Positions 3,829 to 56,015 of a stretch of 64,000 nucleotides of DNA are shown one piece after another; positions within the stretch are counted from its first letter, which is position 1; each line of letters opens with the position of its first letter. The notes below the pieces were generated by a model. That model was not told where the DNA came from and searched no databases. It was given only the letters and a program-made list of their open reading frames with translations. Source of the stretch: Escherichia coli (GTDB taxonomy: Bacteria; Pseudomonadota; Gammaproteobacteria; Enterobacterales; Enterobacteriaceae); the NCBI RefSeq assembly GCF_030013595.1, contig NZ_CP122768.1. One strand, given 5' to 3'. The position numbers and the translations under genes are program-made.

Positions 3829-5604
3829 TTAACGCTTGTACAACGGGCCGTAGTTCTGGCAAGCGCGATAATCCTGGCCTTCAATATCCATGCCGTGCGC
3901 GGCCCAGGCAGAAGGACGATACACTTTGGTCTCTTCAACGTTGTGCATACATACCGGGATACGCAGCATGGAGGCAAGAGTGATAAAGTCTGCGCCAACG
4001 TGGCCGATGGTTAGAACCCCGTGGTTAGCGCCCCAGTTCGCCATTACCGAGTACACATCCGTAAACGGCCCTTTACCGGTGAGGCGCGGTGCAAACCAGG
4101 TGGTTGGCCAGGTTGAGTTGGTGCGTTTGTTGAGGATGTCATGCACATCCTTCGGCAATTCCACGCTCCAGCCTTCCGCGATTTGCAGTACCGGTCCCAG
4201 GCCTTTGATGATGTTGACACGAGTCATGGTGAACGGGACGCCGCCTTCGGTAAGGAAGCGGGAAGAGTAACCGCCGCCACGGAAGTATTCGTGGATCGCC
4301 GGGCACCATTCGGTAGCGGCGAGGCAAGCGTCAGCCTCCTGCTGAGAGATTTCCCAGTGTGGCTTCATCGTCGGGTTACCTTCGCTGTCGCGTTGTTTAC
4401 AGGAACCGTCCAGCGCAGCAGAACCGGAGTTGATCAAATGGATGATGCCGTGTTCTGCCAGTCCATCGAGTTTATGCCCCGTTACACGTTCAATTGCTTC
4501 TGGTGACCAGTAGGTACGCACATCGGCAAATACCTGAGCGGTGCCGGTGAGCTGGTGACCCATTAGCATTGCCACGCCGTTAAGACTGTCGTTTTCGGTC
4601 GCCACGACAAAGGGTTCGCGCACGCCATTCCAGTCAAATGAACTGTTGAGGATCGCTTCGGCGGTGTCGCCATTGGGATATTGATCGGTCCAGTGACGTT
4701 GTCCCTGGAAGCCCGCAGCGATGGCGTTGTAGCCAAGTGATTCTTCCACGCGACCAATATCGGCCAGTTTGCTGTTGCCTTGCATCATGTCGCGGATACA
4801 CATCGCCATCAGTAAACTTTCGCGCAGAACTGCGCGGCTTTGCTCGGCATTGCGTTGATACTGTTTGTTATTTTCATCTTCGCCATAGCGGAAGTTTTTA
4901 TCAGCCCAGGCCAGCGCCATTTCCAGTTCGGCTTCGTCGTAAATCTTCTGATCGATACGGCGACGCAGTTCGGTCATATCCACCGCCTGGACTTTCATTC
5001 CCAGCCAGGATTCAAAGAAGTTGTGATCAACAATGGAACCGGCGATACCCATCGAAACGCCGCCCAGCGATAGATAGCTTTTACCTTTCATGCTGGCGAC
5101 TGCTAAACCGGCGCGGGCAAAGCGCAGCAGTTTTTCTTCAACATCGGCAGGAATCGATGTGTCATCGGCATCCTGAACATCATGACCGTAAATGGAGAAT
5201 GCCGGGATGCCTTTCTGGCTGTGAGCTGCCAGAGCCGCTGCCAGGTAAACAGCGCCGGGACGTTCAGTGCCGTTAAAGCCCCAAATGGCTTTCGGGCGGG
5301 TTGGATCCATGTCGATGGTTTCACTGCCATAGCACCAGCAAGGCGTTACCGTAATGGTGAGGCCTACATTCTGACTGCTGAATTTTTCTTCGCAAGCAGC
5401 GGCTTCAGCCATACCCGCGATACAGGTATCGGAAATGACACACTCGACGGCAGCTCCGCAGGCATGGCGCAGTTTCTCGGTCAGCAGTGCAGCCGTGGCT
5501 TTCGCCATATTCATTGTTTGTTCTTCAAGCGACTCACGAACACCCATGCGACGACCGTCAATAACCGGGCGGATACCAATTTTCGGTAAGCTGATTTTTT
5601 TCAT
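3829..5604 (-). CDS. fucI: L-fucose isomerase
   Basis: 591-aa ORF recognised as FucI. Confidence 0.95.
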
Positions 5605-16711: not shown

Positions 16712-17077
16712 GTCGACAGGGAGTCAGACAACGAAGTGAACATCAGGATGATGACACTTCTGAAGGACACACCAGGATGGTGTTTCAGGGAAAGGCTTCT
16801 GGATGAAGCGAAGAGGATGACGCAGGACGCGTTAAAGGACACCTCCAGGATGGAGAATGAGAACCGGTCAGGATGATTCGGTGGGTCAGGAAGGCCAGGG
16901 ACACTTCAGGATGAAGTATCACATCGGGGTGGTGTGAGCAGGAAGCAATAGTTCAGGATGAACGATTGGCCGCAAGGCCAGAGGAAAAGTTGTCAAGGAT
17001 GAGCAGGGAGCAACAAAAGTAGCTGGAATGCTGCGAAACGAACCGGGAGCACTGTGAATACAGTGCTCCCTTTTTTT
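16712..17077 (+). ncRNA. csrB: CsrB small RNA (CsrA-sequestering sRNA)
   Basis: Begins GTCGACAGGGAGTCAGACAACGAAG; more than a dozen CAGGATG/AGGA motifs spaced through ~360 nt; ends in a GC hairpin (17045-17070) plus T7 run; located between syd and yqcC. Confidence 0.85.
17045..17077 (+). terminator. Rho-independent terminator of csrB
   Basis: gggagcactg-tgaata-cagtgctccc stem-loop followed by ttttttt. Confidence 0.8.
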
Positions 17078-17122
17078 ATTCCTGCTATCCTTCGCGGCAG
17101 TTTTTCTTATTGAGGTTGCTTT

Positions 17123-52350: not shown

Positions 52351-53085
52351 ATGTCCAAACTCGATCTAAACGCCCTGAACGAACTGCCGAAGGTAGATCG
52401 CATTCTGGCGCTGGCAGAAACTAACGCCGAACTGGAAAAACTGGATGCTGAAGGCCGCGTTGCCTGGGCGCTGGATAATCTGCCCGGTGAATATGTACTT
52501 TCTTCCAGTTTCGGCATTCAGGCGGCGGTGAGCCTGCATCTGGTGAATCAGATTCACCCGGATATCCCGGTGATCCTGACCGATACGGGTTATCTGTTCC
52601 CGGAAACCTACCGCTTTATTGACGAGTTAACGGACAAACTCAAGCTCAACCTGAAAGTGTACCGCGCTACCGAAAGCGCCGCCTGGCAGGAAGCGCGCTA
52701 CGGCAAACTGTGGGAGCAGGGCGTTGAAGGCATTGAAAAGTACAATGACATCAACAAAGTCGAACCGATGAACCGGGCGCTGAAAGAACTGAATGCGCAA
52801 ACCTGGTTTGCTGGCCTGCGCCGTGAACAATCCGGCAGCCGCGCCAATTTACCGGTGCTGGCAATTCAGCGTGGCGTATTTAAAGTGCTGCCGATTATCG
52901 ACTGGGATAACCGAACTATTTATCAGTACCTGCAAAAACATGGCCTGAAATATCACCCATTATGGGATGAAGGATATTTATCGGTCGGTGATACCCATAC
53001 AACCCGTAAATGGGAACCCGGCATGGCGGAAGAAGAAACGCGTTTCTTTGGCTTAAAAAGAGAATGTGGGTTACACGAAGGGTAA
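52351..53085 (+). CDS. cysH: Phosphoadenosine phosphosulfate (PAPS) reductase
   Basis: ORF 52198..53085; true start [14 protein letters not shown] at ATG 52351 gives 244 aa. Confidence 0.95.
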
Positions 53086-53102
53086 ATATTGCCGGATAAA
53101 TT

Positions 53103-53140
53103 AAACGCCTCTGTCAGAAATGATGGGGGCGTTTTTATTT
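53103..53140 (+). terminator. Candidate terminator of cysJIH
   Basis: aaacgcc...ggcgttt stem followed by ttttatttt. Confidence 0.4.
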
Positions 53141-53349
53141 TGCGAGCAGCATTCCTGATTTTAAACGTGAACGCCGCTGGAAGAATTATCAGGTATAGAA
53201 TGGCGTTGGGTGCTTGAGGCTGTCTGGCGTTAAGCATTCGCGAGGTTCCAGATGGACAAAAGCCCCAGGCGATATTTCTATCAACCTGAGGCCAGCGTTC
53301 GAACCCAAACAATTCGAATGTTAGTCTCTTCTTTGCAGGGAGGCAAGGC

Positions 53350-53502
53350 ATGCTGACAAAATATGCCCTTGTGGCAATCATAGTGCTGTGTTTTACAGTA
53401 CTGGGATTCACGCTGATGGTAGGCGACTCGTTGTGTGAGTTGAGTATCAGAGAACGTGGTATGGAGTTTAAGGCAGTTCTCGCTTACGAATCGAAGAAGT
53501 AG
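53350..53502 (+). CDS. Hok/Gef-family type I toxin (50 aa), cysH-proximal hok locus
   Basis: [50 protein letters not shown]: single TM helix plus conserved SLCE...R....E..A...YESKK Hok signature; below the 60-aa cutoff of the ORF track; 34-codon upstream ORF (53252-53356) ends ATGcTGA over its start (mok-like). Confidence 0.6.
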
Positions 53503-53523
53503 CCACCACGCGGGGGTAAAACC

Positions 53524-54861
53524 CATAAGCGCTAACTTAAGGGTTGAACCATCTGAAGAATGCGACGCCTCGGTGCCTCGTTAAGACGATGCCTCGCGTT
53601 CTTCAATTGCGTTTTGTAGGCTGTCAGGGATACTGTCCCACGAATGGCCACCTGTAAGCTCCAGATGACCATTTTTGTTATTCTCCACAACGAGTTAGTT
53701 CTTCTTTTCGGATCCGGCACTTCTGGGGGGAAATCCAGCGATGGCTGGATTATGTCGTCAATTAAAAATGCGGCGAGTAGATTAGCAAATATCCACGCTT
53801 TCGCGAGTTCAGGTTCCTTTGCACGCAAAGCATCCAGGTGCAGCAAACTTTTGAGCCGCTTAAAAGCCAGTTCAATTTGCCATCGCAGACGGTAACAATC
53901 AGCCACTTGCTCTGCTGAATATTCATCTTCCGGTAATGATGTTAGCAATAGCACATGGCCCGCTGCTTCCAGCGTTTCCGCCTGAACTACTCGTCCTTTT
54001 CGACGATTCTCGCTGAGCAGTCGGGTTTTACTGATTAATGCTTTTTCGGGAGGAAGTGATACGGCAATGAGACGTGCCGGAAAGGGAGCTCCGGCTTTTT
54101 TATTACCTGAATTGCCTATCATTACAGTGGTTTCACCGTTCTTACCGCAATCCAGCCCGCGCAGAAAACCCATCATGTCAAAGCGCATTCCTTCTGCAGT
54201 TAACCAGCGCAATCCTCGCCAGTGAACCCGGACGATATAATCAGCTTCTCCAAAAGCAAGTGAGCGGATACATTCGGGACGCGAACCGAATCCCCGGTCA
54301 GCAATGCGTATCTCGTCTGCCGTTTGCGCAAATCGGTCCAGCCGTTCAGCGTCTCTGCTGTCGGTTAGCTCAAAATCAGTGAACTGACAGGTATGAGGAT
54401 CATATCCCATATGTAGTCGCCATTCAGCGCTGCCGCCCCCGGGCGCACTGATTGCTGTTCCATCGACAAGACGCAATCTCTTTCCGCTTGTACAACCCGT
54501 AACTGCGGCGCGTACAGCAAGTGTTTGTGCGGCAAGTATGCCAAACCAGTCGGCGGCATTCCGCAGCCGCTTCAGGAGAGCCACGTCAGATAATGTTGCA
54601 ACGTCATGGAGCTGAGCCCATGCAGTGACTTCACGTAATGACATCCCCCCGGGGCCGTAAGCCAGCCCCAGACGTAGCAGAGTTGCAGCATCACGAATTT
54701 CGCGGCGGCGGGTTAGAGCCCCGGCATTACGTGCCGAAGTATCCAGTTCTTCGGGCTTACCAATATGGGCCAGAATTGCTGACCAGTTATCGTGAGAGTA
54801 ATTCATCGGCACGTTAAATCATATCAGGCGTAATACCACAACCCTTAAGTTAGCGCTTATG
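53524..54861 (-). mobile_element. IS186 (IS4 family) insertion sequence, about 1.34 kb
   Basis: Terminal inverted repeats CATAAGCGCTAACTTAAGGGTTG at 53524-53546 and 54839-54861; flanked by direct repeats GGGTAAAACC; single transposase ORF. Confidence 0.85.
53532..54644 (-). CDS. insL: IS186 transposase (DDE, IS4 family)
   Basis: ORF 53532..54812 (426 aa); start at MSLREVTAWAQLHD would give the 370-aa form I recall for K-12 InsL; the longer in-frame extension may or may not be translated. Confidence 0.8.
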   Translation of the reverse strand: MSLREVTAWAQLHDVATLSDVALLKRLRNAADWFGILAAQTLAVRAAVTGCTSGKRLRLVDGTAISAPGGGSAEWRLHMGYDPHTCQFTDFELTDSRDAERLDRFAQTADEIRIADRGFGSRPECIRSLAFGEADYIVRVHWRGLRWLTAEGMRFDMMGFLRGLDCGKNGETTVMIGNSGNKKAGAPFPARLIAVSLPPEKALISKTRLLSENRRKGRVVQAETLEAAGHVLLLTSLPEDEYSAEQVADCYRLRWQIELAFKRLKSLLHLDALRAKEPELAKAWIFANLLAAFLIDDIIQPSLDFPPEVPDPKRRTNSLWRITKMVIWSLQVAIRGTVSLTAYKTQLKNARHRLNEAPRRRILQMVQPLS

Positions 54862-54977
54862 GGGTAAAACCCCGCGTATTGAATTGTTAAAGTTTGGCCT
54901 CCTGCACCCCTTTTTTATACTCTGTTTCTGGTGGCATTGATTTCCTGCAGGCAAGGGAGTAATCATTTTCAAACCCA

Positions 54978-56015
54978 TCAAGACGCCTTCGCCAGCTCCT
55001 TCACCAGCGGTAGCATTATCCGCATAACATCACGGCAGCGACGTTCTATTCTTCCTGGAAGTGCCTTATCAATATGTTGTTGATTATCCAGTCTTACGTC
55101 ATGCCAGCTATTTCCCGCAGGGAATGCGGCTGTTTTTGCGCGTTGCTGATAACCATCTTTATTCCCAAGATTCCAGTTTGTTGCTTCTACCGAAAGTACG
55201 GCAATACCGGCTTTGTCGAAAACTTCGGCGTCATTACAACAGCCAGTACCCTTCGGATAATTTTTATTCAAACCCGGATTGGTCGTTGCGGCAATTCCAT
55301 GACTACGCGCAATTGCCAGCGCCCTGTCGCGCGTTAATTTCCTTACTGCTTCAGGGGTTTTTACACCGCTGTTGAAATACAATTTATCGCCAACAATTAA
55401 GTTATCGAGATTAATCACCAGCAGCGTATTTTTCTTTTCGGTGTCACTCATCCGCTTGAGTAAATTCTCAGCGCCTAATTTTCCTTCCTCTTCGCCGCTG
55501 GTCGCCACAAATCGAATACCATACTCGGTAGGCGTATTTTTCAGGCGTTCTGCCAGTTCCAGCATGACACCTAAACCTGCGGCGTTATCATCTATTCCTT
55601 GTAACGTCAGTCCGCCGAGATTGGCATCGGCGTCAGCATCGCTCAGCGGAGCGTAAGTATCCAGATGCGCCATAATGATGATCTGCTGCGGCGCTTTGCC
55701 TTCATGAGCGGCAATCACCGTACTTCCCGTCACGTTATGCCAGCTCTTGCGATTATCGCGGGCGGTATAAATATACCGACTATTAAATGTCCGAATATCA
55801 CTGCGATAACCCATTTGCTGAAACTGCTGGCGAATATAATCGGCAGATAACATTTCTGCAGGAGTTCCGGTCATGCGTCCCGGAAAGAAAGTAGCAATAT
55901 GTCGTGCCTGAGTATTAGCAAAATCGCCAGGTTTAGATGACGAGGCGTGTACGGGGAGAATAAAGCATACGCCGAGCGCCAGGGCAGCGGTACGGTGGCG
56001 CAATGCGGAAAACAT
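54978..56015 (-). CDS. iap: Alkaline phosphatase isozyme conversion aminopeptidase
   Basis: 345-aa ORF with signal peptide recognised as Iap. Confidence 0.9.
   Translation of the reverse strand: MFSALRHRTAALALGVCFILPVHASSSKPGDFANTQARHIATFFPGRMTGTPAEMLSADYIRQQFQQMGYRSDIRTFNSRYIYTARDNRKSWHNVTGSTVIAAHEGKAPQQIIIMAHLDTYAPLSDADADANLGGLTLQGIDDNAAGLGVMLELAERLKNTPTEYGIRFVATSGEEEGKLGAENLLKRMSDTEKKNTLLVINLDNLIVGDKLYFNSGVKTPEAVRKLTRDRALAIARSHGIAATTNPGLNKNYPKGTGCCNDAEVFDKAGIAVLSVEATNWNLGNKDGYQQRAKTAAFPAGNSWHDVRLDNQQHIDKALPGRIERRCRDVMRIMLPLVKELAKAS

Follow-up and report, generated by a model that had tools for sequence, protein, structure and literature searches.

In the hok/sok/mok system of plasmid R1, the mok reading frame, which begins 19 codons upstream of hok and overlaps it in another frame, has to be translated at least as far as the hok initiation region (PMC9841398). 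[quoted passage not shown] The same region is known from work on the CRISPR-I locus, where a 'hok sok system' serves as a landmark, IS186 inserts beside it at a GC-rich boundary and an IS186 hot spot has been reported (PMC3903273), and from urinary-tract isolates, 90% of which have hok and sokX adjoining cysH (PMC12736100).

In the window, i.e. the whole stretch of 64,000 nucleotides analysed here, cysH ends at position 53085, and a hok gene carrying IS186 in its 3' untranslated region (UTR) lies directly downstream, as expected of a hokX orthologue (Table 1). We regard it as highly probable that this region is the chromosomal E. coli hokX/sokX type I toxin-antitoxin locus in an IS186-interrupted form, in which delayed killing has most likely been lost. 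The feature to which an earlier note on this DNA had drawn attention is real, was read correctly and is already known as hokX/sokX, the name, position, distribution and IS186 interruption of which have been published and annotated. Its correct annotation is that of a hokX/sokX type I toxin-antitoxin locus with IS186 in the 3' UTR, and it has little significance beyond that.

Of 5,426 complete E. coli genomes, about 4,145 (some 76%) carry the hokX stretch (53090-53530, at least 80% coverage), on the chromosome in every case. In every genome inspected it lies 3' of cysH, its next neighbour being cas3, IS186 or iap, and in RefSeq genomes PGAP labels the 50-aa ORF as 'Hok/Gef family protein'. The gene order in 53086-56015 of the window is cysH-hokX-IS186-iap, with neither cas genes nor CRISPR repeats; in the uninterrupted, cas-less alleles MS1266, AVS0970 and DE17 the hok 3' UTR runs straight into iap, as it does in the window.

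The window locus and R1 hok/sok/mok have in common a Hok toxin, a cis-antisense Sok RNA lying over the leader, and the predicted pairing of tac with fbi followed by refolding of the tac stem after shortening of the 3' end. They differ in that R1 has a 70-codon mok overlapping hok, whereas the window locus is chromosomal, has its 3' end interrupted by an IS, and offers candidate upstream ORFs of 34, 18 or 12 codons that end at or before the hok start. K-12 hokC (gef)/sokC (sof) with IS186A resembles the window in four respects: the insertion in the loop of a post-stop GGGG-N6-CCCC hairpin, its orientation, the 10-bp duplication and the presence of fbi on the far side. It differs in its Hok protein (39% identical), in its site between dnaJ and nhaA, and in mokC, which is annotated as an in-frame extension starting 19 codons upstream. 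K-12 hokE/sokE with IS186B is the closest paralogue (78% protein identity) and shares the hairpin position and an upstream AUG at about +45/+49, but its IS186 has the opposite orientation, its upstream AUG is in frame with hok (83-codon ORF), and it adjoins entD/ybdK.

In the hokX locus of E. coli B (BL21, REL606), the hok DNA and protein are identical to those of the window (no nucleotide difference over 153 nt from the BL21(DE3) gene for WP_000956460.1), and the left junction of IS186 falls on the very same base, with the element oriented alike. Its leader is also that of the window apart from six substitutions in the cysH-hokX interval 53086-53523, located at 53348, 53207, 53293-53295 and 53150. 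On the right side, a CRISPR spacer directly adjoins the IS186 of E. coli B; the target duplication is lacking and the fbi-containing 3' UTR has been deleted, an arrangement that fits recombination between two IS186 copies (PMC3903273). Unlike E. coli B, the window shows a simple insertion with a 10-bp duplication, a 3' UTR that continues beyond IS186 into iap, and no CRISPR repeats.

K-12 MG1655 retains a sokX-only remnant (b4701, between cysH and cas3), of which the leader and SokX are nearly identical to those of the window through the hok ATG. Right after this ATG, the sequence diverges into the upstream region of the K-12-type cas3, so that the hok coding sequence (CDS) is missing. Other strains with the K-12-type cas3 share this structure, and the replacement that introduced this cas variant removed exactly the toxin CDS and left the antitoxin. 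In the MG1655 segment compared, positions 4200-4578 align to 53086-53352 of the window, and about 1,280 genomes match only this far.

The toxin gene, its leader and the antisense RNA

Table 1. Positions of the hokX/sokX features, of IS186 and of the displaced 3' UTR in the window, with the basis of each assignment.
Feature	Position	Strand	Basis or remark
Putative hokX promoter, -10 box TAGAAT, no good -35	53196-53201	+	Sequence only; 6 nt upstream of the Rfam-predicted leader start
hokX mRNA leader (5' UTR through hok start)	53208-53365	+	Rfam RF01794
tac element GGGTGCTTGAGGCT	53208-53221	+	Part of hokX leader
34-codon upstream ORF, AUG at +45, stop overlapping hok AUG	53252-53356	+	ORF listing
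SokX antisense RNA, 59 nt: 17-nt 5' tail, long hairpin, UUUUGU	53252-53310	-	K-12 sokX b4701, 100% identity
12-codon ORF ending in the ATGCTGA overlap, without Shine-Dalgarno	53318-53356	+	Kept in 7 of 7 hokX alleles
Putative sokX promoter: -35 TTGCCT (53346-53341), 17-nt spacer, -10 TAACAT (53323-53318), +1 at 53310	53318-53346	-	Sequence
hok Shine-Dalgarno GGGAGG, 6 nt before AUG	53338-53343	+	Sequence; in loop of local hairpin CUUUGC/GCAAGG
hokX CDS, 50 aa, intact	53350-53502	+	Pfam PF01848, 43.1 bits
Left arm and loop of post-stop hairpin CGCGGGGGTAAAACC, including left target duplication	53508-53523	+	Uninterrupted alleles
IS186, 1,338 bp (PGAP: 'IS4-like element IS421 family')	53524-54861	-	23-bp inverted repeats; PGAP in matching genomes
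Right copy of target duplication GGGTAAAACC	54862-54871	+	Sequence
Displaced end of hokX 3' UTR CCGCGTATTGAATTGTTAAAGTTTGGCCTCCTGCACCCCTTTTTT	54872-54916	+	Aligns with 3' UTR of uninterrupted alleles
Hairpin right arm	54872-54877	+	Displaced 3' UTR
Second long-range helix partner	54878-54887	+	Displaced 3' UTR
fbi GGCCTCCTGCACCC	54896-54909	+	Complementary to tac
T-run	54911-54916	+	Displaced 3' UTR

The 50-codon Hok/Gef ORF proposed by the earlier note was found at exactly its coordinates, and the Pfam search suggested there as a check gave a significant match to HOK_GEF (PF01848), with E = 3.1e-11 and a score well above the cut-off of 22, over profile positions 1-42 of 42. This end-to-end match and the identity to HokE show that the ORF did not arise by chance; among the other K-12 paralogues, HokX is 50% identical to HokA, in addition to the lower value given above for HokC. 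The NCBIfam models for HokA (NF007290, 57.7 bits against a cut-off of 89) and for the Hok subfamily (NF007279, 41 bits against a cut-off of 73) scored the 50-aa product below threshold, and we therefore file it at the Pfam level only, as a member of the Hok family that is not HokA. It has the Hok architecture, with hydrophobic residues 5-24 in a total of 50 aa, and the residues C14, L28, C29, E30, E39 and A45 are invariant in the alignment of HokX, HokE, HokC and HokA. By analogy with this family, expression of HokX would be expected to damage the membrane or kill the cell. The local hairpin that holds the hok Shine-Dalgarno occurs both in the Rfam consensus structure and in the MFE folds. At 53348, 2 nt before the hok ATG, the window has a G where all seven other sequences inspected have an A; this G would give the Shine-Dalgarno hairpin one extra base pair.

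The leader is matched by the Rfam model RF01794, named 'sok', over the full model (1-157) with 112.4 bits against a gathering score of 59. As RF01794 also matches the hok-sense strand at K-12 hokC and hokE, what it models is the leader of the hok mRNA, with Sok encoded opposite it in the same interval. The forecast of the earlier note, an antisense Sok-like RNA near 53200-53350, was borne out by K-12 sokX, which maps inside this range without a mismatch. SokX folds with -25.7 kcal/mol (z = -3.7) into a tail and a terminator-like hairpin followed by UUUU.

A consensus promoter and terminator scan of 53050-53560 found neither the hok promoter nor the sok promoter nor the Sok terminator, and called only the cysH terminator (hairpin at 53103-53134) and a chance site inside hok. 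Since neither promoter was called, both are treated here as putative. The candidate sokX promoter has 8 of 12 consensus matches, the threshold of the scanner being 9, and was placed by its spacing to the annotated 5' end of SokX, while the hok promoter and the 5' end of the mRNA would lie where homology places them.

Several neighbouring signals were set aside. A weak match of Rfam ctRNA_p42d to 53101-53143 (+), at 24.9 bits (cut-off 50), falls on the cysH terminator hairpin and was rejected as a chance resemblance between terminator stem-loops. The long minus-strand ORFs 52953-53411 (152 aa) and 53281-53526 (81 aa), which lie opposite the 3' end of cysH, the leader of hok and hok itself, have no family support and are most likely spurious. 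Besides the hokX leader, the only match above the Rfam threshold in the 64-kb window is the CsrB sRNA gene at 16721-17080 (+; RF00018, 383 bits).

IS186 in the post-stop hairpin and the displaced 3' UTR

The element shows all the features of IS186 (IS4 family): it has perfect terminal inverted repeats of 23 bp (53524-53546 and 54839-54861; 0 expected by chance), is about 1.34 kb long, contains a single transposase gene and lies in a GC-rich target, of which 10 bp are duplicated (GGGTAAAACC, left copy at 53514-53523). The inverted repeats and the duplication confirm that IS186 cuts the hok 3' UTR, as the earlier note had claimed; the distance of 16 bp past the stop given there has to be corrected, because IS186 starts 21 nt after the stop codon (53503-53523 lying between).

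In uninterrupted alleles, the sequence from the stop codon onwards reads TAG-CCACCA-CGCGGGGGTAAAACCCCGCG-TA(C/T)TGAATTG, in which a perfect hairpin directly follows the stop codon. This hairpin is present in the MFE fold of the reconstructed mRNA. In the window it is split in its loop by IS186, and the 3'-end hairpin of the processed active mRNA is accordingly missing. The IS186 target, GGGGGTAAAACCCC, is the only GGGG-N6-CCCC (G4N6C4) in the reconstructed 62.7-kb window, and none is left with the IS in place. The hairpin core fits the IS186 target consensus that was reportedly described by SaiSree et al. in 2001. K-12 hokC and hokE carry IS186 in the equivalent loop (GGGG-AGTGAT-CCCC and GGGG-AGTAAT-CCCC, respectively), each with a 10-bp duplication, and three hok paralogues with IS186 in the same hairpin loop illustrate the G4N6C4 target preference.

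The left junction and the orientation of IS186 seen in the window recur, with the hok ORF retained, in at least 839 of the 5,426 genomes. Both orientations of IS186 occur at the hokX site in different strains, the opposite one at 100% identity in several genomes, which implies that IS186 inserted there more than once; the 1,732 genomes counted for the opposite orientation in hokX are not a clean figure, since matches to the hokE-IS186 junction, at 80-90% identity, are among them.

The IS186 copy of the window is one base shorter than K-12 IS186A, having lost one G in a G-run at about 53724 (region 53720-53730), and this is its sole difference from the K-12 IS186A, BL21 and 7CC copies. The lost G, which could be either a homopolymer sequencing error or a real frameshift, gives a transposase ORF of 424 aa instead of 370, in which a 63-aa tail, reaching to within 8 nt of the IS186 end, takes the place of the last 9 residues. 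The transposase gene (53532-54812, minus strand) runs towards hok, and its end is about 30 nt away from the hok stop codon; the minus strand has no terminator-like hairpin between the two genes, and the orientation at K-12 hokC is alike. Read-through from the transposase gene could give an RNA antisense to the hok coding region. On the plus strand, no convincing terminator was found in IS186 near the point, at about 200 nt, where the gef mRNA reportedly ends; the only plus-strand terminator site in IS186 occupies 54076-54095, and the total of 2 sites equals the shuffle expectation.

Beyond IS186 the hok 3' UTR resumes, with fbi displaced by 1,348 nt (about 1.35 kb) and lying 1,393 nt from the hok stop, the whole IS186 included. 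Being beyond the whole IS186, fbi is not expected to be part of the normal hok transcript, and the end-pairing of tac with fbi is therefore absent from the window. The earlier note had suggested that the insertion may remove the fold-back element: the 3' UTR is indeed interrupted, and the post-stop hairpin is split as well, but fbi is displaced and still present.

We rebuilt the pre-insertion mRNA (361 nt) by joining 53208-53523 to 54872-54916. Its MFE fold shows the tac/fbi pairing, of nt 1-6 (GGGUGC) with 54904-54909 and of nt 9-14 (GAGGCU) with 54896-54901, and a second long-range helix between 53308-53317 and 54878-54887; the details of such folds are not reliable for RNAs of more than 300 nt. 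In the 3'-trimmed or IS-interrupted RNA, nt 1-14 pair locally with nt 19-32 instead, a predicted refolding that mirrors the tac/ucb refolding described for R1 (PMC9841398). The reconstructed hokC and hokE mRNAs show the same end-pairing in their folds despite different fbi sequences, and the fbi variants among hokX alleles (GGTCTCC, CTGTACCC) keep the pairing via G-C to G-U changes. A promoter-like site at 54894-54921 (+; TTGGCC, 16-nt spacer, TATACT, 9 of 12 matches), which overlaps fbi and the T-run and points into the iap 3' end, is probably due to chance, the number of such sites found being equal to the shuffle expectation.

Upstream reading frames and the question of mok

The 34-codon upstream ORF, which the earlier note had described as mok-like, was recovered with its exact coordinates and with the exact overlap of its TGA (53354-53356) and the hok ATG (53350-53352) as ATGCTGA. 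We consider it possible, although somewhat doubtful, that this ORF is the true mok, i.e. that its translation, ending on ATGCTGA, is needed to start the translation of hok. A stop codon overlapping a start codon is the classic arrangement for coupling, and the ORF has a GAGG Shine-Dalgarno at 53241-53244, 6 nt upstream of an AUG (53252) that is conserved in 7 of 7 hokX alleles and in hokE. SokX is complementary to the first 19 codons of the ORF, and the AUG region (nt 41-46), which pairs with nt 15-20 in the closed fold of the full-length RNA, is freed when tac pairs locally, as the ucb/SD-mok switch predicts. Against this role stands the length of the ORF, which is limited to the leaders of the window, UPEC245, BL21 and the K-12 type. 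In five of the seven sampled hokX alleles (O157, MS1266, AVS0970, DE17 and 7CC) it is ended after 18 codons by a TAG or TAA at +99-101, 40-41 nt before the hok AUG, and the exact 50-nt version of this stretch found in the window is present in only 818 of the 5,426 genomes. Moreover, the AUG of hokE equivalent to 53252 is in frame with hok, the annotated mokC start of hokC lies elsewhere, and a Pfam search of the 34-aa peptide gave no family match. Coupling would fit this arrangement, but the ORF is not conserved at a length of 34 codons, and that it corresponds to mok is unproven.

The 12-codon ORF that ends in the same overlap begins at +111 (53318), and O157, which has TAA in place of TGA, yet keeps its stop (ATGCTAA). 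The ATG of this ORF is the reverse complement of the putative sokX -10 box (TAACAT), and this overlap alone could account for its conservation. In hokE, both upstream AUGs are in frame with hok. An in-frame mok extension in the style of mokC or hokE was considered for hokX and rejected, as the hok frame is closed by the TGA at 53287-53289 and has no later start codon. The polymorphism of the upstream ORF (34, 18 or 12 codons) bears on how, and whether, coupling of the mok type works in chromosomal hok loci.

Probable consequences of the interruption

By analogy with R1 hok/sok, we propose that the hok mRNA, weakly promoted, starts near 53208 with a structured leader and encodes a membrane toxin of 50 aa. 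The full-length mRNA would be inert through the pairing of tac (5') with fbi (3'), until slow 3' trimming back to the post-stop hairpin frees tac to form a local 5' stem, thereby opening the leader for translation of an upstream ORF, to which the translation of hok would be coupled. The open leader would also expose the Sok site, leading to the binding of Sok and to cleavage of the duplex, presumably by RNase III. In the window, IS186 has transposed into the loop of the post-stop hairpin, leaving the right arm, the second helix and fbi downstream of the element. Since the insertion separates fbi from the leader, the hok transcript would enter IS186 and could not adopt the closed form that serves as a stable reservoir; the prediction is that it takes up the 'open' tac-stem form straight away, without a protective 3' hairpin. 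Programmed delayed killing has most likely been lost in this way, and what is left would be a hok ORF with a short-lived mRNA held down by SokX, the condition to which the label 'inactivated' refers for hokX of E. coli B and for hokC and hokE of K-12.

The term 'inactivated' may overstate the effect of such insertions, given that K-12 gef is reported to be transcribed and antisense-regulated. A stronger version of this idea, which we judge rather unlikely, is that hokX continues to work as a toxin-antitoxin pair in spite of IS186, its mRNA being permanently open, translatable and Sok-sensitive, so that the output of Hok is set by the level of SokX alone and released when SokX falls. The hok ORF, the Shine-Dalgarno, the leader and sokX are undamaged and match those of uninterrupted alleles exactly or almost exactly, the predicted fold of the interrupted transcript is the local tac stem of the active form, and the many genomes counted above have kept the hok ORF next to the insertion. 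K-12 gef (hokC), with IS186 at the equivalent site, is moreover transcribed into an mRNA that ends inside the IS and is antisense-regulated, according to a secondary source (PMC3562002). The destruction of the protective 3' hairpin argues the other way, because weakening the terminal hairpin of the truncated mRNA by mutation makes R1 hok non-toxic, the mechanism predicted by the authors being degradation by RNases (PMC9841398). The equivalent alleles of hokC, hokE and hokX (E. coli B) are classed as inactive in the literature (PMC7232551), and read-through from the convergent transposase gene could add antisense RNA. Loss of delayed killing, with a SokX-repressed hok ORF left behind, is our preferred reading.

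Two further interpretations deserve consideration. It is very unlikely, in our opinion, that the hok ORF is a decaying, functionless pseudogene kept next to cysH by chance: K-12-type strains do lack the hok coding region right after the ATG and have sokX only, and IS insertions and deletions do recur at the locus, but no hok-bearing allele inspected has a damaged 50-aa ORF, the proteins are 96-100% identical among alleles with flanks up to about 6% different, the score of the leader structure is far in excess of the Rfam threshold, and the locus is kept in some three-quarters of the complete genomes. It is improbable, though slightly less so, that the post-stop hairpin of hokC, hokE and hokX is a preferred landing pad that makes IS186 a recurrent and possibly reversible switch, the interrupted allele being a selected regulatory state rather than a dead gene. 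Were this true, the insertion would turn a delayed-killing module into a constitutively open mRNA controlled only by Sok, convergent transcription of the transposase gene might add a second antisense layer over the hok CDS, and this interrupted state would be that of at least 15% of the genomes.

Whatever the reading, an allele with a simple insertion, a target duplication, a kept fbi and no cas genes or CRISPR repeats is a clean natural 'fbi-uncoupled' hok that can be compared with uninterrupted alleles. Its exact right junction, from IS186 through the hok 3' UTR to iap, is present in 1 of the 5,426 complete genomes, that of strain 7CC, from mink.
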